Positions 8,251-58,398 of a DNA stretch of 64,000 nt are shown piece after piece. Numbering within the stretch: position 1 is the first letter of the stretch; every line of letters starts with the position of its first letter. Where the stretch lies: NCBI GenBank assembly GCA_905233585.1, contig CAJOFD010000003.1:4201-68200 (forward strand), read 5' to 3'. Both the position numbers and the translations under genes were made by a program. Source of the DNA: an uncultured Bacteroidales bacterium. Its GTDB lineage: Bacteria; Bacteroidota; Bacteroidia; Bacteroidales; WCHB1-69. The notes beneath the pieces were generated by a model. The model did not search any database. It saw only the letters and a list, made by a program, of their open reading frames with translations, and was not told the origin of the DNA.

Positions 8251-9248
8251 TAAGATTTGCCAAAGACAATGATTTGGAACAACTTAAAAATCTTTGGAAA
8301 ATAGCATTTCCTGAAGACGATATGGATTTTATCCATTTTTATTTTTCCGAAAAAAACAAAGTGGAACATACTTTGGTACAAGATTTTGACGGAAAAATTG
8401 TTGCCATGATGGAAATGATTCCCTATAAAATGACTTTTTTTGACAAACTCGTTGATGTTTATTATATTTCCGGAGCCAACACCCTGCCCGCTTTTCAAGG
8501 GAAAGGTTTGATGAGCAATTTGATAAAACAATCGTTTCAAACAGCCTACCAACAAGGATATGCCTGTGCCGTATTGTTGCCTCAAAACAATTCGGTTATT
8601 AATTTTTACAAACAATTTGATTTTGAGCAAATTTTTGAATATCAAAAATATACACAATGCGTAAAACCATTGTATCTGCCTGTGGAAACATTGACAAACA
8701 AGAATTTGCATGAAGCCTATCAATTTTTTAACAGCCAAACTTTAAAAAGAAATTTTTGCATACAGAAAACATTCGATGATTTCAGAACGATAGTGCAGGA
8801 TTCCCATTTGTCAAAAGACTCTCCTTTCCTATTGAGAGAAAAAGGGAAAATTGTTGCCATGGTCTTCTGTCATCCCGAAAAAGAATTGATAATCAAAGAT
8901 ATATTATATGATTCCGTGGAACATAAAGAACTTGTATTGTCAGCCATCGCTCATTTTTATCGTACAGAAAAGATACAAATCATAGAACCCAATTACAATC
9001 AATCTGAAAATCAAACTTTTTCTTGGGGAATGTTAAGGGTGATTAATTACAGCCAACTTGCCAATATTTACACCGAACATCAACCCAGAAACTCGTCGTT
9101 TGGCTTTCATGACAATTTTATTGCCGAAAACAATGGATATTGGGGAACAAAACAGAGTGAAATTTTATCGTTCAAGCACTCCGATTTTTGCAATCATTTA
9201 TTTAAAAATCAAATCCAAAAACCTTTTATGAATCTGATGTTGGATTAG
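8247..9248 (+). CDS. GNAT-family N-acetyltransferase (Eis-like, two-domain)
   Basis: ATGA start/stop overlap with the upstream gene. Acetyl-CoA pocket-like AFQGKGLMSNLI; N-terminus MIRFAKDNDLEQLKNLW is typical of GNATs. Confidence 0.6.
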   Translation: MIRFAKDNDLEQLKNLWKIAFPEDDMDFIHFYFSEKNKVEHTLVQDFDGKIVAMMEMIPYKMTFFDKLVDVYYISGANTLPAFQGKGLMSNLIKQSFQTAYQQGYACAVLLPQNNSVINFYKQFDFEQIFEYQKYTQCVKPLYLPVETLTNKNLHEAYQFFNSQTLKRNFCIQKTFDDFRTIVQDSHLSKDSPFLLREKGKIVAMVFCHPEKELIIKDILYDSVEHKELVLSAIAHFYRTEKIQIIEPNYNQSENQTFSWGMLRVINYSQLANIYTEHQPRNSSFGFHDNFIAENNGYWGTKQSEILSFKHSDFCNHLFKNQIQKPFMNLMLD

Positions 9249-10735
9249 TCGTATATCATTTTTGAGATGAAAAACACAGACTTGAACGCATTTCGTTTGG
9301 TATTTCCTTTTTTGAACAAGCGTTGATAGCCGTAATAAAAAAAGTAGTTGTCATACCAATATTGGACGGCAGAAGACAAGTTTTTGCTCAACAATTCATT
9401 TTTTGATGTCAAATCTATACTTTCCGCCTGCATAGGTTGGACAATCTTATTTTTTTGATAAATAATAGAATAGGCTTTGGCATCGTAAGCAAAATAAACC
9501 AATAGTTTATCTTCTTCATCAAGAAAAGCATTCAAAATATTTTGCTCATCTCTCAACATTAAACCATTGAAATTTAATCCATTGCAAGTTTTCAAATTGC
9601 CATTCATATCCATATAAAAAATGGCGGCATGCAGATAGCGAAAGCCTACAAAACGCATGGTTGGCATAGATGTTCCCCCATAATACATATTCATTGTCTG
9701 TATATCTTGTTCATATTCAGGAACAAAAAACTCCGTAACGGCTACAAGGGCGGTATCGTTGGCAAAAGCGGTGAAATGATGGCTATACAAAGAAGCATTG
9801 CCTGCCTTTTTTTTGTCAGCAAACATTTTTTCCATTTGCAGATAATCTATAAATTTGGCTTGTTGGGGTTGGGCATTGATAATAGGAATTACAAACAAAC
9901 CGTTTGCACTTGTGGAAGAAAATATTGTTTTTTCTTGAGAAGAAAACGTTCCGCAAACCAACATTCTGCTATCCTCTCCGCCAAGTTGATGAAAATCAAA
10001 TTGTTGTATTTTATATTTATCTGATATGGAAATATTTGTTTCATTTGTTAGCGTCCCCAAAGAATCAATATCCGCCAAAAGACATGAAGTTTGTTTGTCT
10101 TGATAAACAAGGCAACCCACTTTGAGCAAATGATTTAAAGTATCAAAATGAGCCGCTTGCATGCTTGTTTGTCTTTTGTCGGCAAACAATGGCACATATT
10201 CATTTTTGCGACAATCAAATAGATACATTGTCTTTTGGCTTTTGTTCTCCTGCAATTCAAACAATATGATTTGTTCTCCGCAGGCAAGACTTGTCAGAGT
10301 CGCATTGTTGGGAATATTTAAAGCAAATACCTGTATTTTTTTTTCTATTATATTGTAAAGCAGAAAAAAAGTGTTGAAATCGGTATTTTTTTGTTGATGT
10401 TGCCACCCTGCACAAAAATAGGTATTGTCAAAAAACGTTTGCCGCAAACTCAAGTTGTAAGCCAAATCAATTTTTTTGCTTGTTTTTGTGCGTAAAAGTG
10501 AGTCATAATGCGTGATTGTCCACGATTTCCCGTCGTTGTTGTCTGTCAAGAGCAACAATCCGTCTTGTTTTAACGATTCAATATAAACAAAGGTATTAGC
10601 CGAAGACAATGGAATATCTATTCGCAAAGGAGGATTGTCTTGTGCAACAACTCTTGAAAAAGAACATATCAGCAACAAAAGCGATATGCTTATTTTACAA
10701 AATTGCGTTTTGTTATTTTTCAATTTGCGGAACAT
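9245..10735 (-). CDS. secreted hypothetical protein
   Basis: 496-aa ORF with a signal peptide (ISISLLLLICSFSRVVAQ). No recognisable catalytic motif. Confidence 0.6.
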   Translation of the reverse strand: MFRKLKNNKTQFCKISISLLLLICSFSRVVAQDNPPLRIDIPLSSANTFVYIESLKQDGLLLLTDNNDGKSWTITHYDSLLRTKTSKKIDLAYNLSLRQTFFDNTYFCAGWQHQQKNTDFNTFFLLYNIIEKKIQVFALNIPNNATLTSLACGEQIILFELQENKSQKTMYLFDCRKNEYVPLFADKRQTSMQAAHFDTLNHLLKVGCLVYQDKQTSCLLADIDSLGTLTNETNISISDKYKIQQFDFHQLGGEDSRMLVCGTFSSQEKTIFSSTSANGLFVIPIINAQPQQAKFIDYLQMEKMFADKKKAGNASLYSHHFTAFANDTALVAVTEFFVPEYEQDIQTMNMYYGGTSMPTMRFVGFRYLHAAIFYMDMNGNLKTCNGLNFNGLMLRDEQNILNAFLDEEDKLLVYFAYDAKAYSIIYQKNKIVQPMQAESIDLTSKNELLSKNLSSAVQYWYDNYFFYYGYQRLFKKGNTKRNAFKSVFFISKMIYD

Positions 10736-13490: not shown

Positions 13491-13537
13491 GTCTGTCTTT
13501 GTCTGAATTTGTAAAAAACAGGATATTTCCTATTTTG

Positions 13538-13545
13538 CAAAGATA
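13538..13545 (-). promoter_or_regulatory. -7 box TATCTTTG (minus strand) upstream of thyA
   Basis: Plus-strand caaagata is the reverse complement of TAnnTTTG, 48 nt upstream of the thyA ATG. It lies inside the 32-mer repeated at 58580-58611. Confidence 0.45.
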
Positions 13546-13653
13546 CAATTTTTTAGAAAAGCAACGGCGAATTTTCAAAATTAAATTAAGCATTGGGGAC
13601 AAACAAAAAATAGCCGGCAATTACCGCTTCTGCCCGATAAATAAAAGTTCAAG

Positions 13654-14376
13654 TTGGAAAGTTATAAATTAGAGGAAAAAATAACTAAACTGCAATGGTC
13701 TCCACAACAAATAAAAGGATATTGTGATGCCAACAACATCCCGATGGTTTCCGTAGAATGGATATATCATTATATCAAATTAGACAAAGCCAATGGAGGT
13801 ACATTATATAAGCATTGTCGCCATCAATTGAAACATCGAAAGCGATATGTTGGTGCTGGGGTAAAACATATTCCTGATAGAGTGTCCATACATGAGAGGC
13901 CTGATATAGTGGAATATAGAATGGAATTTGGACATTTTAAGATGGATTTAATCCAAAATGGGAAGGATTTTATATTAGTCATAGTAGAAAGGAAGAGCAG
14001 GTATCTTTTTATGGTGCGATTACCCAAAGGGAAAAATGCAAAAGATGTGGCAAAATATGTTATAAAAATACTCAAACCCTATAAAAAATACATCAAATCT
14101 ATCACGACAGACAATGGAGGAGAATTTGCAGCCCATAAACTGATAGCCAAAGCCTTAGGCGTGCAAGTGTTCTTTACTGACTCATATAGTTCTTGGCAGA
14201 AGGGTACGGTAGAAAATACCAATAAATTAATCAGACAATATATACATAAAGATATGGATATACGTAATTTATCATATAATCAAATTATACTAATTCAAAA
14301 TAAGTTAAACTATAGACCAAGAAAAGTGCTTTTTTTCGATAAGCCTGCTAATATTTTTTATAACTTTGTTTGTTGA
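13654..14376 (+). pseudogene. IS30-family DDE transposase, 5'-truncated remnant
   Basis: Catalytic core is present: GHFKMDLI (D), ITTDNGGEF (D), SWQKGTVENTNKLIRQYI (E). The N-terminal HTH (~80-100 aa) is missing. The frame is closed by a stop at 13642 and only a TTG start is available. Confidence 0.8.
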
Positions 14377-14401
14377 ATCTATATTTTGAAAAAAATCATA
14401 T

Positions 14402-14440
14402 AAAAAAGCATTTGTATTGCTTTTTTGTTTACTTTTGCAG
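14402..14440 (+). promoter_or_regulatory. conserved precursor-peptide promoter block (TTTG -33-like plus TACTTTTG -7 box)
   Basis: aaaaaagcatttgtattgcttttttgtttacttttgca. By hand alignment, ~34 of 39 nt are identical to 54807-54845, upstream of the second precursor. Confidence 0.55.
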
Positions 14441-14471
14441 AAAAATAAAAAATGAATTATTCATTATTCTT

Positions 14472-14754
14472 ATGAGCAAAAAATTAAATTTAGAAATTAT
14501 AGAAAAAAGGAAGCAATGTAGAATTCTCCACAATAACAGGAGAGGATATGAATCAAATAAGAGGAGGTGCTAACCGTTGTGATTGCAAGAATCGTTGTGA
14601 TAACAAAAAATGTTGTTATACTATTTCGAGTAGTTTGACTGGGGATAAAACGATAAAAACGGATATCCCTGTTAATATTCCTATAAATATGCCAGATACA
14701 ACGAGTACAGATTCTACCTCAACTACATCTATTATTGGAATATTTGGATTTTAA
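14472..14754 (+). pseudogene. GG-leader RiPP precursor peptide 1; the leader is interrupted by a +1 frameshift in an A6 tract
   Basis: Frame A reads MSKKLNLEIIEK and then runs out of frame. Frame B (track ORF 14548-14754) reads ...GSNVEFSTITGEDMNQIRGG-ANRCDCKNRCDNKKCCYT.... Removing one A from the 14503-14508 run joins them into a typical Bacteroidetes double-glycine leader. Confidence 0.6.
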
Positions 14755-14759
14755 ATATT

Positions 14760-14797
14760 ATGGATGTCTCATTTAAATGAGAGCATATCCATTTTTT
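14760..14797 (+). terminator. hairpin plus T-run immediately after the precursor gene (attenuator/terminator)
   Basis: atggatgtctcattt/aaatgagagcatatccat imperfect hairpin followed by tttttt, ending just before ATG 14798. Confidence 0.5.
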
Positions 14798-16231
14798 ATG
14801 AAATCAAGATTTATATTTATATTTTTACTATTTTTTCATTCTCTTTGGGCACAAAACACGGAAACGAGTTCCTTATACATAAAGGGCTTCTTGTACCTAT
14901 GTGACAAATTAGAGGCTGTACACCCTAATATATATGCCAATTTGTCTGGTTTGGAGTATGAGAAATGGAAAAAAACATGTGAAGCGGAAGTTTCATTAAC
15001 CAAAAACGAAGTTGATTTTAAACTATTACTTGCAAAGTTTTTGGCTAAAATAGGAGATTCGCATACTCGTGTTATTATAAGTGAAAACAAGCATTTCCCT
15101 GTTACAATTCGTTTATTTAACGGAAAATATTACGTGGTAGCAGCGGAAAATCGCGATAGTATAGGTTTTGCTATTGATTATATAAATGGTGTGTCCATTG
15201 CACAAGTTCAGCTTATTTTAAGTGAATATATAAGTGCAGAAAATGAAGATTGTAAAATGTTTTATTTAACGGAATGCCTGCGTTCTCCTACTTGGCTTTC
15301 TCTCATTAATAACGGAAGAATCTTGGATACGCTTTCCATTACTATGAATAATGATAAAACAATTTCTATGAAAGCGATGGAAAAATGCACCGTATATTTA
15401 GATACTGCCTATAGTGAAATCTATCGTAAAAAACAGAGTAGTTTTTTTTATCGTATTGATACTTTGAACAATCTATGTATCTTGTATTTTAATGCAATGG
15501 AAGACAGAGCTTGTTTGTGTCGCACAAAGAAACAATTGTATAGCCGAAAATATTTAAAACAACCTTTGTTTTCTGAATTTTTAACTCAAATGTTTCAAGA
15601 AATGCGATGGCATAATATTCAAAATTTAGTTATAGATTTGCGGAACAATCAGGGGGGGAATAGTATGTTAGGCGACCAACTGCTTTATTTTATTGCAGAC
15701 AAAAAAGAAGTGGCAAACAAAATTACTATGAATACAAAAACACGTATATCAAAAGATTACAAAAAACAACGTTCATCTTCTCCTCATATCAGATACATAT
15801 ATGAGGAGAATAAATCTTTTGATAATTATACACATACTAATGAGAAATGGTTTTGGGAATTGGAAAATCCGAAAAGTATATGGTATATAAAAGATACAAC
15901 TTGTCGGTTTCATGGACAAGCCTATGTATTGGTGAGCAATTCCACCTATAGTGCAGCTTCGGATTTAGCATGGTATATGTCCTGTTTAAATATTCCTTTG
16001 ATAGGTGAACGTACAGCACAAGCCATTAATTGTTTTGGGGATTATTTGGAATTTGTTATGCCTAATTCAAAAATACCATTTACTGTAAGTTGCAAATATT
16101 TTTATGATAAAAATGCCAATACTGAGAATAGGGTTAATCCCACTATCCCCGTTTTATACGATTATGAAGATTTGCGACATGGATATGATAAACCAATGGA
16201 AAAAGTATTGGAAATAATAAGGAAAAACTAA
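14798..16231 (+). CDS. S41-family (tail-specific-like) serine peptidase, secreted
   Basis: LVIDLRNNQGGNS, NSTYSAASDLA (Ser nucleophile context) and LIGERTAQ motifs. Signal peptide MKSRFIFIFLLFFHSLWAQ. I prefer the start at 14798 over the track start 14777, which lies inside the hairpin. Confidence 0.8.
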   Translation: MKSRFIFIFLLFFHSLWAQNTETSSLYIKGFLYLCDKLEAVHPNIYANLSGLEYEKWKKTCEAEVSLTKNEVDFKLLLAKFLAKIGDSHTRVIISENKHFPVTIRLFNGKYYVVAAENRDSIGFAIDYINGVSIAQVQLILSEYISAENEDCKMFYLTECLRSPTWLSLINNGRILDTLSITMNNDKTISMKAMEKCTVYLDTAYSEIYRKKQSSFFYRIDTLNNLCILYFNAMEDRACLCRTKKQLYSRKYLKQPLFSEFLTQMFQEMRWHNIQNLVIDLRNNQGGNSMLGDQLLYFIADKKEVANKITMNTKTRISKDYKKQRSSSPHIRYIYEENKSFDNYTHTNEKWFWELENPKSIWYIKDTTCRFHGQAYVLVSNSTYSAASDLAWYMSCLNIPLIGERTAQAINCFGDYLEFVMPNSKIPFTVSCKYFYDKNANTENRVNPTIPVLYDYEDLRHGYDKPMEKVLEIIRKN

Positions 16232-16233
16232 AT

Positions 16234-17538
16234 ATGATTTGGTCTAGGTATAATTATTTGTTTAAATCGGAAAAATATGGATATTTGTTATATAACTCTT
16301 TGAGTAATGCTTTTTTGCACATTCCAGATAAAAGCATTGGATTTATTAAAGAAATACAAAATAATCCAAATTTAATAAATGAATATGACGAAAAAGAATA
16401 TTTTCAAGAAAACAAAATTATAGTAGAAAATGACGATGATGAAATCGCTGTATTAAAAGTTTGTGAATCTATAAATCGTTATACATCAAATTCACTAGGT
16501 TTAACAATAGCACCAACTTTGGGCTGTAATTTTCGTTGTTCTTATTGTTTTGAACTGAATAAACAAGGTTCACGAATGAGCACCGAAATACAACAAGCTA
16601 TTGTCAAATATGTAAAGAAACGAGATTTTATTACAGATTTGAGTGTAACTTGGTATGGGGGAGAACCATTGCTATGTATGGATATTATTGAACATTTAAC
16701 AAAAGAATTTTTGTCTTTAGGAAAAAGATATAATGCTGATATTGTTACAAACGGCTACCTGTTATCTATAGATGTTTTTAGACAATTACAAAAATTAAAA
16801 GTTTACACAATTCAAATTACTTTGGATGGATTAGCAGAAACACATAATAAACGCAGACCTCATGCTAATACAAATAATTCTTTTGAACAAATAATAAATA
16901 ATTTAGATACTATTATTCCCATTAAAGAAAATACAGATATTTCCATCCGTGTAAATATTGATAAAAAAAATAAAAATGAATTTCCTGAATTATATTTCTT
17001 TTTACAAAAACGATACAAAAATTCTGTTTTTGTTTACCCTGCTTTTGTAGAAAATCTTAATGGCACTTGTAAAACAAGTGATTGTATGCAAGATGTAGAT
17101 ACTATGACCCAATATTTAATAGAATTATATAATAATTATGGAATTTATGATCAGAAATTTTTTCCCAAATTAACATATTCAAGTTGTATGGTACGAGATT
17201 TGCGGTCTTATGTGGTGGACCCATTAGGAAAAATGTACAAATGTTGGAATGACATTGGCATTAAGGGAAAAGAAGTTGCCGATATTACTGAAGATAAAAT
17301 TATTAATCAAAATCTATTGGCTCGATATTTAAAAGGTGCAGATAAAATGGATTCGTCTGAATGTGCTGTATGTCATTTATATCCTGTTTGTAGCGGAGGT
17401 TGTCCATATCATCGTTTATTGTATGTATATAATAAGAAACAAGTGAATTTTTGCCATATAGGCAAACATTATTTAGAAAAATTGTTGGAAATACACTATG
17501 ATTGGAAAATGAAGCAACAAAATTCATACAAAAAATAA
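16234..17538 (+). CDS. radical SAM / SPASM-domain peptide maturase
   Basis: GCNFRCSYCFE (CX3CX2C). C-terminal SPASM cysteines CMVRDLRSYVVDPLGKMYKCWND...SECAVCHLYPVCSGGCPY. Confidence 0.9.
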   Translation: MIWSRYNYLFKSEKYGYLLYNSLSNAFLHIPDKSIGFIKEIQNNPNLINEYDEKEYFQENKIIVENDDDEIAVLKVCESINRYTSNSLGLTIAPTLGCNFRCSYCFELNKQGSRMSTEIQQAIVKYVKKRDFITDLSVTWYGGEPLLCMDIIEHLTKEFLSLGKRYNADIVTNGYLLSIDVFRQLQKLKVYTIQITLDGLAETHNKRRPHANTNNSFEQIINNLDTIIPIKENTDISIRVNIDKKNKNEFPELYFFLQKRYKNSVFVYPAFVENLNGTCKTSDCMQDVDTMTQYLIELYNNYGIYDQKFFPKLTYSSCMVRDLRSYVVDPLGKMYKCWNDIGIKGKEVADITEDKIINQNLLARYLKGADKMDSSECAVCHLYPVCSGGCPYHRLLYVYNKKQVNFCHIGKHYLEKLLEIHYDWKMKQQNSYKK

Positions 17539-17554
17539 ATTCAATCTTATTTAT

Positions 17555-18832
17555 ATGCCACAAATGTACCCGAATACTAATCAGTCTTATTATTCCGAAC
17601 CAGTTCAAGAGATATTGGGTCGTCCTCCACGTTGGATAATTAGAGCGGGTATCACGGTGATATTTGTTGTAGTGGCGTTGTTGTTTATCGGAAGTTATTT
17701 TATCAAATATCCGGATGTATTACAAGCCCCCATTACCGTAACTACCGCCCACTTGCCCGCTGGTGTTATGGCTCGGACAACGGGACGGATTGATACGATT
17801 TTTGTGAAAGAAAAACAATCTGTCCAAACCGGTGATTTATTGGCTGTAATGGAAAATGCTGCCCATTGGCAAGATGTACTTTGGCTGAAAAACAACGTGG
17901 ATTCAGCCGAGCGAAACACTTCTCTGCAATTAGGAGAGATTCAATCATACTATTTTGCCTATCTGAAAGCCAAAGAAGATTATGCCTATTTTTTACGGAT
18001 GGACTATCATCGCAGAAAAATAAAAGTATTGGAAAAACAGATACGTACCCAAAAGAATATGTTACAAAATGTACGAAAACAATTAGCGATACAAGAGCAA
18101 CAATTGGACATTTCGCGGGAAGTATTTTACATGGATTCCTCTTTGTATGCCCAAGACTTGATTTCCAAATTGGAATATGAAACCGCCCGAAGCAAATATT
18201 TGCAACAGCAACAAAATTACGATAATACCAAATTAGGGTTCCATAGTGAAGAAATGAGTATTTTGCAATTGGAACAAGATATTTTTGATTTGGAACAAGC
18301 ATGTATAGACGAGGAAAACACTCTTTCGTTGGCATTGAATGGAGCCAAAGACCAATTGCAAGCCCAATTGGCAGATTGGGAAAAGGCTTATCTGTTGTAT
18401 GCTCCATGCAATGGTATTGCCACCTTTACCAAATATTGGCAAAGAAATCAGAATGTTTCAGCAGGCGAAATATTAGTAACGGTTGTTCCTCAAGAGCAAA
18501 GTCATATTATTGGAAAGATATTGCTTCCTCCTCAAGGAGCAGGCAAAGTGGAAGTAGGACAAACCGTGAATGTCAAATTAGACAATTTTCCTTATATGGA
18601 ATATGGTATGGTCAAAGTCAATATTCAGCATATTTCTTTGGTTCCGGTTCAATTAACAGATGGAAGTCAGGCTTATATGTTAGAGGTTGAATTTCCTGAT
18701 AAATTGCAAACAACATATCACAAAGATTTGGTTTTTAGTCAAGAAATGACAGGTACCGCTGAAGTTATCACCAAAGATTTACGATTATTGGACAAATTTC
18801 TCAATCCCATTCGTTATGTTTTTCAGCGATAG
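17555..18832 (+). CDS. HlyD-family membrane fusion / secretion protein
   Basis: N-terminal TM (AGITVIFVVVALLFIGSYF), a long coiled-coil middle and a beta-barrel-like C-terminus. Sits directly upstream of the C39 ABC exporter. Confidence 0.8.
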   Translation: MPQMYPNTNQSYYSEPVQEILGRPPRWIIRAGITVIFVVVALLFIGSYFIKYPDVLQAPITVTTAHLPAGVMARTTGRIDTIFVKEKQSVQTGDLLAVMENAAHWQDVLWLKNNVDSAERNTSLQLGEIQSYYFAYLKAKEDYAYFLRMDYHRRKIKVLEKQIRTQKNMLQNVRKQLAIQEQQLDISREVFYMDSSLYAQDLISKLEYETARSKYLQQQQNYDNTKLGFHSEEMSILQLEQDIFDLEQACIDEENTLSLALNGAKDQLQAQLADWEKAYLLYAPCNGIATFTKYWQRNQNVSAGEILVTVVPQEQSHIIGKILLPPQGAGKVEVGQTVNVKLDNFPYMEYGMVKVNIQHISLVPVQLTDGSQAYMLEVEFPDKLQTTYHKDLVFSQEMTGTAEVITKDLRLLDKFLNPIRYVFQR

Positions 18833-18868
18833 TAAATTAGAATCAACACAGAATAGTTAGCCGTTAGC

Positions 18869-21025
18869 GTGAAAAAAGAATTTCCTTTTTATAAACAATT
18901 AGATGCAATGGATTGCGGTCCTACTTGTCTGCGAATGATAGCCAAGCATTATGGCAAACATTATTCATTAGACACCTTACGACAAAAAAGTTTCATCGGA
19001 CGTGATGGCGTAAGTCTGTTGGGTATAGGAAAAGCAGCAGAAAGCATAGGCTTCCGTTCTTTAGGGGTAAAAATTTCTTTTTCCCAACTATGCGAAGCCC
19101 CATTGCCATGCATTGTACATTGGAAACAAAATCATTTTGTTGTAGTATATGACATTCGCTTAAACAAGCGGAAAAATGGAACGGCAGATGGTTGGGTTTA
19201 TGTGGCAGATCCCGCGACAGGAAAAATCAAATACCGTATTTCTGAATTTCTTCAAAATTGGTTGAGCATACAAAACGGCATGGAAAAAGAAGGGATTGCC
19301 ATGTTGTTGGAAGCTACCCCTGATTTTTATGCCGCTGAAGGTGAAAAAACGGACAAAACGCGTCTCCGTTTTGTATTGCAATATCTTAAACCTTACAAAA
19401 AACTGATAGTCCAACTTTTCTTGGGTATGTTGTTGGGAACTATCCTGCAACTGATTTTTCCGTTTTTAACTCAAACCATCGTTGATTATGGTATCGGTAA
19501 TGATAATTTGAGTTTCATTACTTTGATTTTAATAGCCCAATTAACACTTTATGTGGCACAAACTTCGGTAGAATTTATCCGTTCGTGGATATTGTTACAT
19601 ATCAGTACCAGAATCAATATATCCATTATTTCCGATTTTTTGTTGAAATTGATGAAATTGCCCATAGGATTTTTTGATACCAAAATGATAGGCGACCTTA
19701 TGCAACGCATAGGTGACCACAGCCGTATTGAGTCGTTTTTGACCTCCTCCACATTAAATACCTTGTTTTCTTTTGTTAATCTGATAGTTTTCAGTGTGGT
19801 TTTGGCTGCATATAATTGGAAATTGTTTTTCGTATTTTTATTTGCCAGCATCATTTATGTTTTGTGGATAAGTTTATTCTTGAAAAAACGAAAAGAATTG
19901 GACTATAAACGTTTTGCACAAGCATCTGCCGAGCAAAGCAATCTATATCAAATGATAACGGGTATGCAGGAAATTAAACTCAACAATTGTGAAAAACAAA
20001 AACGTTGGGAATGGGAAAATATACAGGCAAATTTATTCAAAGTAAGTGTAAAAGGATTGGCCTTGAGCCAATACCAGCAAACAGGTGCTTTTTTTATCAA
20101 TGAGACCAAAAATATTTTGATTTCTTTTTTATCAGCGGCAGCAGTTATCAAGGGTGATATGACTTTAGGTATGATGACTGCTGTACAATATATTATTGGA
20201 CAGTTAAATTCTCCTATAAATCAAATGATTGGATTTATTCAGTCTGCCCAAGATGCCAAAATCAGTTTGGAACGTTTGGGCGAAATTCACAACAAAGAAG
20301 ATGAGGATGAACACACAGAAGCAAGGATAATTGCCTTGCCCGAACATCATAGTATAAGTTTTCAAAACGTAAGTTTCCGTTATGATGTTTTGGGCAAAAA
20401 TGTTTTGGAGGATATTTGTTTGCAGATTCCTCAAGGCAAGATTACAGCCATTGTAGGTATGAGTGGAAGTGGTAAAACAACCTTAGTCAAACTGATGTTA
20501 GGTTTTTATCCTCCAACACAAGGAGAAATCAGGGTGGGACAAACCGCCTTGCAAAATATAGACCCGCATTGGTGGAGGCAGCGTTGCGGAGCCGTTATGC
20601 AAGATGGCTTTATATTTTCGGATTCCATTGCCAAAAATATTGCTATCGGAGAGGATATTATCGACAATCATCGATTGCTTCATGCCGCTGAAGTTGCCAA
20701 TATTCAAGAGATGGTTTCATCTCTGCCTTTAGGCTTTCAAACCAAAATCGGACAAGAAGGAAAAGGAATATCCCAAGGTCAGAAACAACGGATTTTGATA
20801 GCACGAGCCGTTTACAAAAATCCCGATTTTATCTTCTTCGATGAAGCGACAAATGCCTTGGATGCCAACAATGAACGCATTATCATGGATAATCTTCAAC
20901 AGTTTTTTAAAGGCAAAACGGTTGTCATTGTTGCTCATCGTTTAAGTACTGTTAAAAATGCGGATAATATTCTTGTTATCAATAACGGTAGAATTTCCGA
21001 ACAGGGAACCCACGAATATTTATAA
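18869..21025 (+). CDS. peptidase-C39-domain ABC transporter (bacteriocin/RiPP exporter), 3'-truncated by prophage insertion
   Basis: C39 motif QLDAMDCGPTCLRMIAKHYG; six-TM domain; Walker A GMSGSGKTT; signature ISQGQKQR; Walker B FIFFDEATNALD; H-loop VAHRLST. The ORF ends at ...EQGTHEYL* exactly at the phage junction, and the rest of the C-terminus is at 54724-54790. Confidence 0.9.
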   Translation: MKKEFPFYKQLDAMDCGPTCLRMIAKHYGKHYSLDTLRQKSFIGRDGVSLLGIGKAAESIGFRSLGVKISFSQLCEAPLPCIVHWKQNHFVVVYDIRLNKRKNGTADGWVYVADPATGKIKYRISEFLQNWLSIQNGMEKEGIAMLLEATPDFYAAEGEKTDKTRLRFVLQYLKPYKKLIVQLFLGMLLGTILQLIFPFLTQTIVDYGIGNDNLSFITLILIAQLTLYVAQTSVEFIRSWILLHISTRINISIISDFLLKLMKLPIGFFDTKMIGDLMQRIGDHSRIESFLTSSTLNTLFSFVNLIVFSVVLAAYNWKLFFVFLFASIIYVLWISLFLKKRKELDYKRFAQASAEQSNLYQMITGMQEIKLNNCEKQKRWEWENIQANLFKVSVKGLALSQYQQTGAFFINETKNILISFLSAAAVIKGDMTLGMMTAVQYIIGQLNSPINQMIGFIQSAQDAKISLERLGEIHNKEDEDEHTEARIIALPEHHSISFQNVSFRYDVLGKNVLEDICLQIPQGKITAIVGMSGSGKTTLVKLMLGFYPPTQGEIRVGQTALQNIDPHWWRQRCGAVMQDGFIFSDSIAKNIAIGEDIIDNHRLLHAAEVANIQEMVSSLPLGFQTKIGQEGKGISQGQKQRILIARAVYKNPDFIFFDEATNALDANNERIIMDNLQQFFKGKTVVIVAHRLSTVKNADNILVINNGRISEQGTHEYL

Positions 21026-54723: not shown

Positions 54724-54790
54724 ATATTTGACCAACTTTAAAGGAGAATATTTTAATTTGGTAAAAAATCAATTGGAATTGGGAATTTAA
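54724..54790 (+). pseudogene. displaced 3' end of the C39 ABC exporter gene
   Basis: Joining ...GTHEY at 21019 to 54728 onward reads in frame as GTHEYLTNFKGEYFNLVKNQLELGI*. This is the canonical C-terminus of this exporter family. Confidence 0.8.
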
Positions 54791-54806
54791 ACTAAATAAT
54801 TTTTTC

Positions 54807-54845
54807 AAAAAAGAATTTGTATTATTTTTTTGATTACTTTTGCGA
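54807..54845 (+). promoter_or_regulatory. conserved precursor-peptide promoter block, copy 2 (TACTTTTG -7 box at 54835-54842)
   Basis: aaaaaagaatttgtattatttttttgattacttttgcg; ~34/39 identical to 14402-14440. Confidence 0.55.
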
Positions 54846-54899: not shown

Positions 54900-55186
54900 A
54901 TGGAAAAAATAGATAAATAGATAAATATAAAAATGCAAAATTAGAAAACATGGATGCCATTATAGGTGGGAGGGAAGTTAGAAAATCTTATAATAGCAAT
55001 ACAGACATTCATCATGTTTTGCAAGATAAAACTATTTATAATAATAATGGTTGTATTGTTAAAGTCAAATTATGGGATGAGGGCGTAAAATATGTAGCTA
55101 CATATGCAGGAGATTGTCAGAATGGTTATGACGGCTCTATTCCAAAGGACGGAAATAAAGCAACGAGGGAATATTTTAGTATTTAA
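54900..55186 (+). pseudogene. GG-leader RiPP precursor peptide 2; the leader is interrupted by a perfect 8-bp tandem duplication
   Basis: ATG 54900 reads MEKIDK*. The track ORF frame reads IDKYKNAKLENMDAIIGG-REVRKSYNS.... ATAGATAA is duplicated at 54909-54916 and 54917-54924. Deleting one copy gives MEKIDKYKNAKLENMDAIIGG plus a 71-aa core. Confidence 0.6.
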
Positions 55187-55228: not shown

Positions 55229-56131
55229 ATGAGAATATTATTCTTGTCATTATTTTTCTTTATCTTGTGTTTAAAAGATGGACTTTCCCAGTCGGATTAC
55301 CTTACCTATTTCCGATTAAAAAATAAAGCGGAAGTTGCTATTTGTCAAGATCAATATGCCAATGCCTTAAATTACTACAAATTGGCATTTCAAGTAGTGG
55401 ATTTCCCATTATATAAGGAGTTAAACAATGCTTTTATTTGCTCTTTATTAGTGGGGGATACTGTTTATTTATATGATTCCCTATCCATTTATTCGGGACG
55501 CATAGATTTAAATCGTATTGAAAATCAATATTATATTCAATCCTATTCCAATACACAAACATGGAAGCAATTTGTGAAACAAGCAAATATTTATAGAACT
55601 ATTGCAACAAACAGCATCAATAATAATTATATACGGTTATTGGATTCTTTAGATAAAGAGGACCAAAAACCACGTCAGATAGGCATTACGAAAAGAAACA
55701 AAATAGCAAAAATAGATAGTTTAATTGCTATTGCTACAGATCAATTAATGCATTGTTGGGATTATCCTAATGAACGAAATACAGGTCTAAAATATGTAAC
55801 AAACTCTCCGATATGTATTTGGCATAGAATTGATACGACATTCATTAATTATGAATATCAAATGTTGTGTGAGGGGAAAATGGAGCCAGAACTTTATGTA
55901 AGAAAAAAAAGTTATGCTTCCTCAATACAAGTTGTCATGAAAAAATCAATAATAGAGAAAGACAAATATTGTAGACTTTCATTTTCAAAACTGACAACAA
56001 TGGAATTAGAAGAAGTGAATAAAAATCGTTCAGCTATAGGTTTCCCCACTACAGAAGAGTGGAAAATTTTATGCAAAGCACGGAAAGAAAAAACAGAAAT
56101 GGGTTTTATCTTTCATATATTTATACTATGA
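55229..56131 (+). CDS. secreted protein of unknown function in RiPP module 2
   Basis: Signal peptide MRILFLSLFFFILCLKDGLSQ. 300 aa. ATGA-coupled to the ATP-grasp gene. Confidence 0.6.
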   Translation: MRILFLSLFFFILCLKDGLSQSDYLTYFRLKNKAEVAICQDQYANALNYYKLAFQVVDFPLYKELNNAFICSLLVGDTVYLYDSLSIYSGRIDLNRIENQYYIQSYSNTQTWKQFVKQANIYRTIATNSINNNYIRLLDSLDKEDQKPRQIGITKRNKIAKIDSLIAIATDQLMHCWDYPNERNTGLKYVTNSPICIWHRIDTTFINYEYQMLCEGKMEPELYVRKKSYASSIQVVMKKSIIEKDKYCRLSFSKLTTMELEEVNKNRSAIGFPTTEEWKILCKARKEKTEMGFIFHIFIL

Positions 56132-57099
56132 TTGTTATTGTTTCTCAAGAAAACGATAGTTCTACAAATGATGTAATGGATTGGTTATACGCATGGAATA
56201 AAAAAGTTGTGCGAATCAATGAAACCGATACAATTAATTCATTCTCTTTACAAATAGATGATAATGATCTGTCTTTAATTTTTCGTTGTGGAAACAAAGA
56301 ATTTAAAATATCTGACGTAGATTATTTTTGGTTTCGAAGAGGAGGCTTTGTGTTTGATGTGTCATTTCTAACAAAAATAGAACCGCATTTTTATACGTAT
56401 TTAAAAGAACACTTATCAGATGAGTGTAACACAATGAAGGATTTTTTAGTTTATTTATTAAATAAGAAACCTTCTTTGGGTAATTATTATCAGGGAAATG
56501 CAAATAAATTAATAAGTTTATATGTTGCTCAAAAAGTTGGAATGGAAATACCCAATACCATAATTTCTTCTGCCAAGGAAGATTTACTACATTTTTACAA
56601 AAATCAGAAATCGAGTATAACAAAATTTATACAAGATGTTTTATGTTTTAATTATCAAGGATATAGATATTATACAAATACTTCCCTTGTTGAAAAAAAC
56701 GACATAAAAAAAATGAGGGGAACCTTTTTCCCATCCCTTTTACAAAAGGAAATACATAAACGTTATGAATTGAGAATTTTTTATTTAAAGGGGAAATGTT
56801 ATTCTATGGCAATATTTTCACAAGAAGATAAACAAACAGTTATTGATTTTCGAAACTATAATGACCAAATTCCTAATCGTTATGTTCCTTATAAACTACC
56901 TCATAATATTGAAGATAAAATAGATAAGTTTATGCATAAAATGAATTTAGATACAGGTTCTATAGATATGATTGTTACGCCTGATTTAAAATATATTTTT
57001 TTAGAAGTTAATCCTGTTGGACAATATGATATGGTATCTGTTCCATGCAATTATTATCTACATAAAAAAATAGCACAAACAATTAGTAACAATGAATAA
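56128..57099 (+). CDS. ATP-grasp peptide ligase (RiPP maturase, MvdC/D-like)
   Basis: Start reassigned to MIVIVSQENDSST (ATG 56128). Motifs NKLISLYVAQKVGMEIPNT, ELRIFYLKGKCYSMAIFS, VIDFRNY and GSIDMIVTPDLKYIFLEVNPVGQY. Confidence 0.8.
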   Translation: MIVIVSQENDSSTNDVMDWLYAWNKKVVRINETDTINSFSLQIDDNDLSLIFRCGNKEFKISDVDYFWFRRGGFVFDVSFLTKIEPHFYTYLKEHLSDECNTMKDFLVYLLNKKPSLGNYYQGNANKLISLYVAQKVGMEIPNTIISSAKEDLLHFYKNQKSSITKFIQDVLCFNYQGYRYYTNTSLVEKNDIKKMRGTFFPSLLQKEIHKRYELRIFYLKGKCYSMAIFSQEDKQTVIDFRNYNDQIPNRYVPYKLPHNIEDKIDKFMHKMNLDTGSIDMIVTPDLKYIFLEVNPVGQYDMVSVPCNYYLHKKIAQTISNNE

Positions 57100-57280
57100 A
57101 AAAAAATTTATAGAGATTATTCATGATCAGGGAGATAGAGCATATCCTCTTCATTATAAGGATGTTAAAATGCGAAAAAATCGAATTGGGAAATTTCAAC
57201 AAAATATTTTTGTTGAAATGTTTCAATCTAAATGTTGTGAATCCTTTTGTTATTATAAACCTATTTCTAAAATATTGTGA
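57092..57280 (+). CDS. small Cys-rich ORF between the ATP-grasp and SPASM genes (candidate substrate or accessory peptide)
   Basis: 62 aa, MNKKKFIEIIHDQGD...FQSKCCESFCYYKPISKIL. Its start overlaps the ATP-grasp stop and its stop overlaps the next gene. Confidence 0.4.
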   Translation: MNKKKFIEIIHDQGDRAYPLHYKDVKMRKNRIGKFQQNIFVEMFQSKCCESFCYYKPISKIL

Positions 57281-58398
57281 GTAATTTTGTGCAGATGTAT
57301 GCTTGTTGTATTCCAGTAAAAGGATACAAAAGGTCTCTAATTTATGATTTACAGCGACCGCAAAATTCAAATTTTATTCCTAACGACATGTATGATATAA
57401 TAGTCGATTTTAGAAATAAAAGCATAGAGGAAATAAAAAGATTATATCAATATCAATACAATGAAGAAATTGACTCTTATTTTCATTTTTTGTTGGAGAA
57501 TAATTTTGCTTTTGTATTGCAGAAAAATGAGTTAAACAATTTTCCTCCTTTGGAAAACATATGGGAATCACCATCTGAAATAACCAATAGCATTATATAT
57601 GTATCCAAGAAAAACATTAAATATCTTAATTTACTATTAAAACAATTGTCAGATTTGCGATGTGATGCAGTGCAATTCTGTTTTACAGACAACATAACTA
57701 TTGAACATATTCATATATTAGGAAAACAATTGGAATTGTTACGCATTCTTTCAGTAGAAATATTATTTAACTACAATGATTTATTAAACATATCTGACAT
57801 GTTATCTGTCATAGATAAATATCCTAGAATTCGTCGAGTAGGAATAGGAAATTGTCCCCAAGAGTTTTCTTGTACAGATAAGAGATTATATTGCACCATA
57901 AATCAAATTGATTGGGAAAATGGATGTGGAAATATTTCCTCTCAATATTTTTCCATTGGAATGGAAATGTTTTTTGAATCACAACATCATAATACATGCC
58001 TCAATAGAAAAATATGTATTGATATGAATGGAAATATTAAAAATTGTCCGTTTATGAAGCAAAGTTTTGGTAATATTAAAAATACAACTTTAAAAGAAGC
58101 AATAGTAAAACAGGGATTTAAAGATTTCTGGTTCATTTGCAAAGATAATATTGAAGTATGTAAGAATTGTGAATTTCGTTATATGTGTACAGATTGTCGT
58201 TGTTATATCAAACAACCAGCAAATATCTATTCTCCGCCATCTAAATGTACATACAATCCATATATAACTTTGTGGAAACATCAAAAGCATTATGTTCCCA
58301 TAGAAGAATGTGGTTATTTTGATAAATCATTTCGATTTGTTCCGGATTATGAAAAAATAGATATGTTAAACAAGACTATTTGGGGAGATAAAGAATGA
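57277..58398 (+). CDS. SPASM-domain protein lacking the radical-SAM CX3CX2C motif (grasp-with-SPASM-type partner)
   Basis: C-terminal SPASM cysteines CLNRKICIDMNGNIKNCPF...VCKNCEFRYMCTDCRCY. No CX3CX2C anywhere in the N-terminal 230 aa. The likely true start is MYACCIPVKGYKRSLIYDLQR (ATG 57295). Confidence 0.75.
   Translation: MSNFVQMYACCIPVKGYKRSLIYDLQRPQNSNFIPNDMYDIIVDFRNKSIEEIKRLYQYQYNEEIDSYFHFLLENNFAFVLQKNELNNFPPLENIWESPSEITNSIIYVSKKNIKYLNLLLKQLSDLRCDAVQFCFTDNITIEHIHILGKQLELLRILSVEILFNYNDLLNISDMLSVIDKYPRIRRVGIGNCPQEFSCTDKRLYCTINQIDWENGCGNISSQYFSIGMEMFFESQHHNTCLNRKICIDMNGNIKNCPFMKQSFGNIKNTTLKEAIVKQGFKDFWFICKDNIEVCKNCEFRYMCTDCRCYIKQPANIYSPPSKCTYNPYITLWKHQKHYVPIEECGYFDKSFRFVPDYEKIDMLNKTIWGDKE

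Follow-up and report, generated by a model that had tools for sequence, protein, structure and literature searches.

Precursor 1, a short gene at positions 14472 to 14754 of the 64,000-nt stretch of contig CAJOFD010000003.1 analyzed here (the window; uncultured Bacteroidales bacterium), very probably suffered a real, recent and inactivating frameshift of +1 nt within its leader-coding part, and would otherwise encode the precursor of a peptide modified by a radical-SAM enzyme and exported by the double-glycine route; the shift most likely originated by the growth of a run of five adenines to six (A5 to A6). The gene is an ordinary recent pseudogene from a rare ranthipeptide-like family, situated in a decaying island for peptides that are made by ribosomes and modified post-translationally (RiPPs): its homologs are intact, independent assemblies show the lesion, and close relatives do without the gene. 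Since the leader has been cut to a stub of seven residues, the frameshifted precursor 1 is probably a non-functional relic.

The leader of precursor 1 is divided between two reading frames

The gene as written comprises the following elements:

14472–14573, + strand: open reading frame (ORF) of frame 0, consisting of MSKKLNLEIIEK and 21 residues that are out of frame, with stop codon TAA at 14571–14573
14503–14508, + strand: A6 run, where the extra base most probably lies (A5 to A6), from the presence of A6 in the window and in contigs L001–L006, and from deletion scoring
14509–14568, + strand: remainder of the leader, GSNVEFSTITGEDMNQIRGG, read in the +1 frame and closed by the double-glycine cleavage motif, from the alignment with relatives
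14548–14754, + strand: 68-aa ORF of gene callers (P0001), formed by the 7-aa stub MNQIRGG and the 61-aa core (14569–14751)

From ATG 14472, frame 0 reads MSKKLNLEIIEKRKQCRILHNNRRGYESNKRRC, where RKQCRILHNNRRGYESNKRRC is the part after the A6 run, and ribosomes entering at this codon would thus add 33 residues before reaching the TAA. Only the first 12 codons (14472–14507) belong to the true N-terminus of the leader, which aligns with MNTKKLNLTCIEN, MEKKRLNLVSVEA and MKLEIIES from relatives. In the +1 frame, which is open from 14503, KKGSNVEFSTITGEDMNQIRGG is followed by a 61-residue core (ANRCDCKNRCDNKKCCYT...IIGIFGF) and a stop codon at 14752–14754. The earliest ATG, GTG or TTG codon in this frame is ATG 14548, the start of the 68-aa ORF, which leaves a stub of 7 residues ending in GG. 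The core is Cys-rich in its N-terminal part, includes a TGDK motif and a stretch rich in Ser and Thr, and terminates in GF; it is homologous to relatives L015, L011, L014 and L018 (L0xx designates public contigs or loci compared with the window).

Removal of one A yields a 93-aa product with a 32-aa leader that shows the double-glycine pattern, having I-4, M-7, I-12 and F-15 before G-2 G-1. The ORF as written retains only GG, I-4 and M-7 from this pattern, having lost positions -12 and -15 and everything further upstream. A tblastn search identified no second copy of precursor 1 inside the window. A preliminary description of this DNA, made from the sequence alone, had placed the start at ATG 14472, the A6 run at 14503–14508, and the rest of the leader and a 61-aa core in the +1 frame, with only MNQIRGG left before the core; all these coordinates were reproduced, and ATG 14548 is indeed the first start in that frame.

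Intact relatives have a long leader in a single frame

A word-indexed protein search with the repaired peptide returned only the identical 68-aa ORF, and scans against NCBIfam and Pfam gave nothing useful, the sole match being ComC (E = 0.18). The family is rare: a HMMER scan with the 68-aa ORF against 1.84 billion representatives recovered the ORF itself and two true relatives. Relatives were therefore reached through the neighboring genes for an S41 peptidase and a radical-SAM protein, direct searches with the repaired peptide having yielded none. Scans of collections with the S41 alignment gave two loci among genomes and one among metagenomes, the locus of the species itself being absent among the GTDB representatives. 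Six distinct precursors from other organisms were obtained, as follows:

L011/L012: precursor of 91 aa, followed by an S41 gene
L014: precursor of 90 aa, followed by an S41 gene
L015: precursor of 102 aa, followed by S41, radical-SAM and HlyD genes, the same order as in the window
L018/L019: precursor of 74 aa, followed by S41 and radical-SAM genes
L020: precursor of 85 aa, followed by a radical-SAM gene
L022: precursor of 85 aa, followed by a radical-SAM gene

All six have a leader of 28–40 aa ending in GG and read in a single frame across the shift site, and each adjoins a homologous S41 peptidase gene, a radical-SAM gene, or both. The repaired leader of the window (KKLNLEIIEK-GSNVEFSTITGEDMNQIRGG) aligns through this site with those from L011 (KKLNLTCIEN-GKNISFSTLSQNEMNQIAGG), L015 (KRLNLVSVEA-GKQICFSTLSEKEMNQITGG) and L018 (KLEIIES-AKSIHFASLSDNDMRNIEGG). 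In BLASTP, the repaired peptide matched the intact 91-aa homolog from L011 with E = 5e-18, over an alignment spanning the shift site. Additionally, a profile built from the six relatives, with the window excluded, scored the repaired peptide at 84.0 bits vs 46.2 bits for the 68-aa ORF as written. The claim that deleting one A would produce a 32-aa double-glycine leader is therefore borne out by this profile score and by the match to L011. The preliminary description had also considered that orthologs might conserve a short start of the MNQIRGG type, but none of them does, with leaders in one frame in 6/6. Because all six relatives are in a single frame across the site, the split leader is best read as a derived lesion, and these alignments argue against a chance resemblance of the leaders.

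The family shares a TGDK/FGDN motif and a Thr-rich stretch, with a C-terminal GF in the branch linked to S41 peptidases. The S41-linked precursors from the window (14746–14751), L010, L011, L014 and L015 end in a hydrophobic ...(F/L)GF sequence. The radical-SAM-only relatives L020 and L022 have other endings and no adjacent S41 gene, and L018/L019 has an S41 gene, yet ends in …KLSIL and not in GF. S41 enzymes are C-terminal processing proteases, and the GF tail may be the recognition site for the S41 peptidase.

Position of the extra base

The comparison with relatives localizes the extra base to 14503–14523, because single deletions across this range (to about 14523) score similarly. The top position is the A run, whose shortening gives the 84.0 bits and restores an E-x-G motif present in 5/6 relatives, and which is the sole homopolymer in the range; deletion of T 14517 scores 83.5 bits, 0.5 bit below. 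The extra base thus most likely lies within the A run and would have arisen by replication slippage from A5 to A6, as judged from these scores. The A6 run named in the preliminary description is then the best choice, although all positions in 14503–14523 are possible. At the shift point, the relatives contain GAA AAC GGA (L011) and GAG GCT GGG (L015), with no A run.

The A6 run is real and a second haplotype lacks the gene

The broken 68-aa ORF was found on seven contigs in a collection of about 15 billion public proteins. Besides the window, it occurs on six further metagenome contigs (L001–L006), which are 99.87–100% identical to the window and come from six assemblies in three accession series, obtained with different assemblers (contig names of the k141, k87 and scaffold types). 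The run is A6 in all of them, i.e., in 7/7 copies of this haplotype. Several of these contigs carry single nucleotide polymorphisms (SNPs) with respect to the window elsewhere, and are therefore not copies of one record. Exact look-ups of the 93-aa product of A5 and of the 94-aa product of A8 in the same collection found neither of them.

Homopolymers are classic sites of sequencing error, and deletion of a single A restores a well-formed leader, so that an assembly error over a true A5 with an intact gene has to be considered. We assign it almost no probability, since the same A6 was obtained from six other contigs, in six assemblies from different assemblers and three accession series, with SNPs that set the contigs apart, and the A5 product is missing from the protein collection. 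The finding of A5, which would have restored the gene, was thus not made in any assembly.

The same data bear on phase variation at the DNA level, with the A run as a contingency tract subject to slipped-strand mispairing, ON as A5 or A8 and OFF as A6. Homopolymer length does vary in the population, both in the radical-SAM gene (A8/A9) and at 9450 (T7/T6), but the run in precursor 1 is invariant and no ON product appears in public data. The run is also short for a contingency tract, being one of a kind frequent in the window (94 A/T runs of 6 nt in 47 other genes), and there is none at the equivalent site of the relatives. Besides, the sister haplotype described below is devoid of the gene. 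Phase variation is, therefore, very unlikely.

We identified a second haplotype of the same species in contigs L023, L024, L025 and L027. Their radical-SAM protein is 100% identical to that of the window, and their DNA is 99.7% identical to window positions 14875–21021 and 54724 onward. In these contigs, window positions 13642–14874 are swapped for a 4.5-kb segment (L023 142–4631) that includes a gene for a 432-aa product and two additional S41 genes and gives the S41 gene another 5′ end; no homolog of the precursor was found in it. The left breakpoint is at 13641/13642 (L023 1–141 corresponds to window 13501–13641, where homology ends), and the right breakpoint is at 14874/14875; the replaced segment of the window contains precursor 1 together with a remnant of an IS30 transposase and the initial 98 nt of the S41 gene. 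In total, from 11 assemblies of the species, seven have the frameshifted copy and four have no gene, with an intact copy in none. The absence from the second haplotype indicates that precursor 1 is dispensable in the species.

The S41 5′ end of the second haplotype matches the P0002 type from a TonB-receptor/S41/S41 array in a metagenome-assembled genome from buffalo rumen (L007, L008, L013). Record names suggest the rumen as the habitat of the species.

Three causes had been put forward for the split leader in the preliminary description. Of these, inactivating mutation stands and sequencing error is essentially excluded, whereas slippage-based switching finds no support, given a tract of constant length and a sister haplotype without the gene.

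Precursor 1 retains putative flanking signals and heads a predicted modification and export operon

The frameshifted gene keeps a promoter-like element upstream and a terminator hairpin downstream:

13642–14376, + strand: remnant of an IS30-family transposase without its 5′ part (ORF 13654–14376, 240 aa; NF033563, Pfam rve)
14411–14438, + strand: promoter-like element TTTGTATTGCTTTTTTGTTTACTTTTGC, with TTTG at 14411–14414 and TACTTTTG at 14430–14437; twin at 54816–54843
14760–14798, + strand: hairpin followed by a U run, 3′ of the precursor, terminator- or attenuator-like from its folding energy

The Bacteroides -33/-7 promoter consensus is TTTG plus TAnnTTTG, and the element at 14411–14438 is probably the precursor's own promoter, as judged from its sequence. 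Near-identical 28-nt elements (TTTGTATTnnTTTTTTGnTTACTTTTGC) are situated upstream of both precursor genes of the island, at 14411–14438 and 54816–54843, which suggests that a type of promoter, or its regulation, may be common to both. The hairpin is probably a terminator or attenuator that is kept in relatives and is weaker in the window, with a folding energy of -11.5 kcal/mol (z = -2.6) vs -17.1 to -17.3 kcal/mol (z = -4.5 to -7.0) in L011, L014 and L015.

The IS30 remnant (NF033563, 231.6 bits, profile positions 47–267 of 267; also Pfam rve) abuts the promoter region of the precursor, and thyA is also situated upstream. Over its 3′ end (window 14246–14286), contig L003 differs by five SNPs in 41 bp, in surroundings that are almost identical; this cluster looks like gene conversion from another IS30 copy.

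Precursor 1 is the first gene of an operon of the kind typical for peptides made on ribosomes and modified by enzymes, with the following genes downstream:

14777–16231, + strand: S41-family peptidase with a signal-peptide-like N-terminus (PF03572, 52 bits vs cut-off 24)
16234–17538, + strand: radical-SAM/SPASM peptide maturase with a predicted N-terminal leader-binding domain, similar to a RiPP recognition element (RRE), from family profiles and a CteB fold
17555–18832, + strand: HlyD-type membrane-fusion (adaptor) protein (TIGR01843, PF13437)
18869–21025, + strand: ABC exporter with an N-terminal C39 peptidase domain, 19 residues short (PF03412, 112 bits vs cut-off 22)

Homologs of the S41 gene follow the intact precursors in L011, L012, L014, L015 and L018, and its first 98 nt are part of the haplotype-specific segment. 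Its listed start, ATG 14777, falls inside the terminator hairpin; a second ATG at 14798 gives MKSRFIFIFLLFFHSLWAQ, which is a better match to the signal peptides of relatives and may be the real start.

The radical-SAM protein contains the CxxxCxxC motif, with C98, C102 and C105 invariant in 36 homologs, and scores above the cut-offs for PF04055 (54.7 vs 29.5) and for the SPASM family TIGR04085 (53.3 vs 27). Its closest solved structure is CteB (5wgg/5why), both by profile (E = 6.6e-39) and by fold (E = 9e-19, full length); a profile was required, as a single-sequence search of solved structures gave nothing at E up to 1e-5. An AlphaFold model (predicted local distance difference test, pLDDT, of 90) places strands at residues 7–12, 16–21 and 26–30 and then helices at 32–59, forming a three-strand, three-helix domain, and the N-terminus is accordingly modeled as a leader-binding domain of the RRE type, like that of CteB. 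The protein falls far short of the curated equivalog cut-offs of all named maturase families, including its best hit TIGR04334 (Clo7bot, 232.6 vs 600), TIGR03974 (SCIFF, 77.4 vs 425) and TIGR04463 (214 vs 525). The HlyD protein scores above the cut-off for PF13437 (42.6 vs 22.2 bits) and below that for TIGR01843 (112 vs 208.65 bits). The exporter carries the DCGPTC Cys motif and has the HlyD partner adjacent.

In the intact system, the CteB-like radical-SAM/SPASM enzyme would capture the precursor through the leader of about 32 aa, docked on its N-terminal leader-binding domain, and would then cross-link the Cys-rich core. The C39-peptidase ABC exporter, with HlyD, would cut after GG and export the peptide, and the secreted S41 peptidase would probably trim the conserved C-terminal tail.

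The possibility that the 68-aa ORF from ATG 14548 is itself the functional precursor, MNQIRGG being a sufficient minimal leader, must be weighed against this scheme. The stub keeps GG, I-4 and M-7, the ORF is annotated by gene callers, the start is preceded by the purine-rich AGGAGAGG, and the frame-0 stop lies 25 nt downstream of ATG 14548, which would make reinitiation conceivable. However, the purine-rich stretch is accounted for by the codons of T-G-E-D, and Bacteroidetes do not generally rely on Shine-Dalgarno pairing. The leaders of all relatives have 28–40 aa, and the relic of a long leader is still readable in two frames. The motif recognized by the C39 protease LahT150 lies within the last 13 leader residues, of which this protease needs about 13 (PMC6363468), and the maturase has a predicted leader-binding domain. 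We consider a functional minimal leader highly improbable. By analogy with LahT150 and from the modeled maturase, the suspicion in the preliminary description that MNQIRGG is too short for enzyme and exporter gains support: with positions -12 and -15 missing from the stub and a leader-binding domain predicted in the maturase, the 68-aa product would escape both recognition for modification and efficient cleavage and export.

The frameshift is one of several lesions in the locus

Beyond what had been described, the shift in precursor 1 turned out to be one of several lesions in a decaying locus. Two of them lie around the exporter and a second precursor:

21022–54723, strand not applicable: prophage (about 33.7 kb) that interrupts the exporter gene within its 3′ end (PHROG families; 6-bp duplication)
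54730–54792, + strand: displaced 3′ end of the exporter gene, TNFKGEYFNLVKNQLELGI plus stop codon, with the last 19 codons at 54730–54789
54900–55186, + strand: second double-glycine precursor with an 8-bp tandem duplication (ATAGATAA twice, 54909–54924); the unduplicated form is found elsewhere

The prophage is flanked by a 6-bp duplication, ATATTT (21016–21021 and 54724–54729), and its ends contain the motif AACGAAATGTGCAACTTTTT twice (21033 and 21055) and once inverted (54627). Its genes match PHROG families for tail sheath, tape measure, head and protease proteins; it is apparently of the transposable type and inserted by transposition. The stop codon of the exporter (TAA, 21023–21025) comes from the prophage end. 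In comparisons with TIGR03796, the truncated exporter covers positions 5–698 of 710, and the rejoined form covers 5–710 with a higher score. The prophage site is empty in L023–L027, and the exporter is uninterrupted (724/737 aa) in the other haplotype and in the protein record MBO4738395.1; several contigs end exactly at 21021 and 54724.

Removing one copy of ATAGATAA from precursor 2 gives MEKIDKYKNAKLENMDAIIGG followed by a 71-aa core. The unduplicated 92-aa precursor 2 (P0136) occurs on seven public contigs and on L023–L027, being therefore intact in the other haplotype. A grasp-with-spasm maturase pair is situated 3′ of it (56059–58398; TIGR04192, 335 bits, cut-off 230; TIGR04193, 284 bits, cut-off 175), indicating that the island contains two different RiPP systems with one common exporter.

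The A8 run at 16963–16970 in the radical-SAM gene is A9 in L001 (10416) and L005 (2665), that is, in two of the six contigs, which belong to different accession series. A9 splits the gene into pieces of 246 aa and 150/193 aa, and a knock-out allele of the maturase is thus segregating in the population. We also observed that a T7 run at 9450 is T6 in L003 (2904), where a hypothetical gene for a 496-aa product (9245–10735, minus strand) is split into ORFs of 62 aa and 420 aa. These variants were considered as a sign of error-prone assemblies, which was rejected because of the occurrence of A9 in two contigs from different accession series. The RiPP island thus contains five independent lesions: the frameshift in precursor 1, the IS30 remnant, the prophage, the duplication in precursor 2 and the A9 allele of the radical-SAM gene.

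Can the frameshift be bypassed?

Several observations weigh against inactivation. The 61 core codons remain an open frame and each of the four downstream genes has its full length in the window, which fits a very recent lesion but would also fit continued use. Being nearly clonal (divergence ≤0.13%), the contigs speak for the reality of the extra base rather than for its long persistence, and minority A5 reads would be invisible in consensus assemblies. Profile scoring leaves more than one position for the extra base. Finally, non-programmed frameshift suppression of 1–10% has been measured in E. coli (PMC10861913), and some full-length precursor could be made through such leaky suppression.

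This last point leads to a compensatory recoding that would keep the cluster functional, either by a +1 slip of tRNA-Lys on AAA (14505–14507) with AGG in the A site or by slippage of RNA polymerase. A slip from AAA 14505–14507 to AAA 14506–14508 would re-pair perfectly and yield exactly EKGSNVEF, including the conserved Gly. Among Arg codons in the window, AGG ranks as the second-rarest, and both rare AGG codons and "corrective" frameshifting have been documented (PMC5009743), as have error frameshifting frequencies in the percent range cited above; moreover, the downstream genes are intact in the window. On the other hand, the site is conserved in no relative, all six being single-frame and without an A run, and no stimulatory RNA structure was found around the shift site (z = +1.1). 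AGG is only moderately rare (4.1 per 1000 codons), and in-frame AAA-AGG occurs four times in the 47 other genes. Selection against slippage-prone A/T runs is evident for about 9 nt in many bacteria, not for 6 nt (PMC1088944). In addition, this strain has damage in the exporter and in the second precursor as well, and the sister haplotype is without the gene. We therefore regard compensatory recoding as very unlikely.

A variant of this proposal is that the frameshift is tolerated or even useful: low-level +1 decoding at GAA-AAA-AGG, or slippage of RNA polymerase on the A6 run, would supply a little full-length precursor, and the indel would throttle a costly or self-toxic peptide instead of knocking it out. 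If true, it would be a natural compensatory recoding in a Bacteroidales RiPP gene, but it is very unlikely; nothing points to leaky suppression of the order of percent being in use. Loss of function through a recent frameshift is, in consequence, the reading that we favor.

Relation to known systems and significance

The family resembles the Bacteroidetes precursors of TIGR04149 (GG_sam_targ_CFB) and TIGR01847, which are short, with a GG leader, hydrophobic residues at -4, -7, -12 and -15 and a Cys-rich core, and its cluster is like those surveyed in Bacteroidales, with a radical-SAM/SPASM enzyme, a C39-peptidase ABC exporter and HlyD in an operon (PMC10352776). Five of the six relatives match these models weakly, with best E values of 3.8e-4 for TIGR01847 (bacteriocin_sig) and 5.2e-4 for TIGR04149, and the repaired peptide of the window did not match either of them at E up to 10. 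Unlike those systems, the family of the window has TGDK/FGDN, a Thr-rich tail, a C-terminal GF and an adjacent S41 gene, and the copy in the window is frameshifted.

The maturase is like those of the CteB and SCIFF type, which form thioethers (ranthipeptides), in its CxxxCxxC motif, SPASM domain, N-terminal domain of the leader-binding type and full-length fold. CteB is a thioether-forming maturase whose equivalent N-terminal domain binds the leader; the maturase of the window is only 16–17% identical to it, and its thioether chemistry is predicted by analogy.

The lesion itself is like other homopolymer frameshift pseudogenes, in which a single-base indel in or beside a run splits a conserved ORF and leaky decoding is possible (PMC5009743, PMC1088944). 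It differs from utilized slippage sites, with about 9 A/T or conserved heptamers with stimulators, in that it is unconserved and unstimulated and lies in a gene missing from the sister haplotype.

For annotation, the 68-aa ORF should be taken as the frameshifted pseudogene of a 93-aa precursor and not as a bacteriocin with a short leader. The intact relatives define a rare, uncurated family of precursors with a GG leader, a Cys-rich core, TGDK and a C-terminal GF, whose partners are a CteB-like maturase and an S41 peptidase; in natural-product mining, the template for this family would be L015 or L018, and not the broken copy. For the biology of the organism, these results describe an ordinary loss of a peptide-toxin or signal gene that is unusually fully documented, with two haplotypes of one rumen species, five lesions, and the exact breakpoints of the rearrangement and the prophage.

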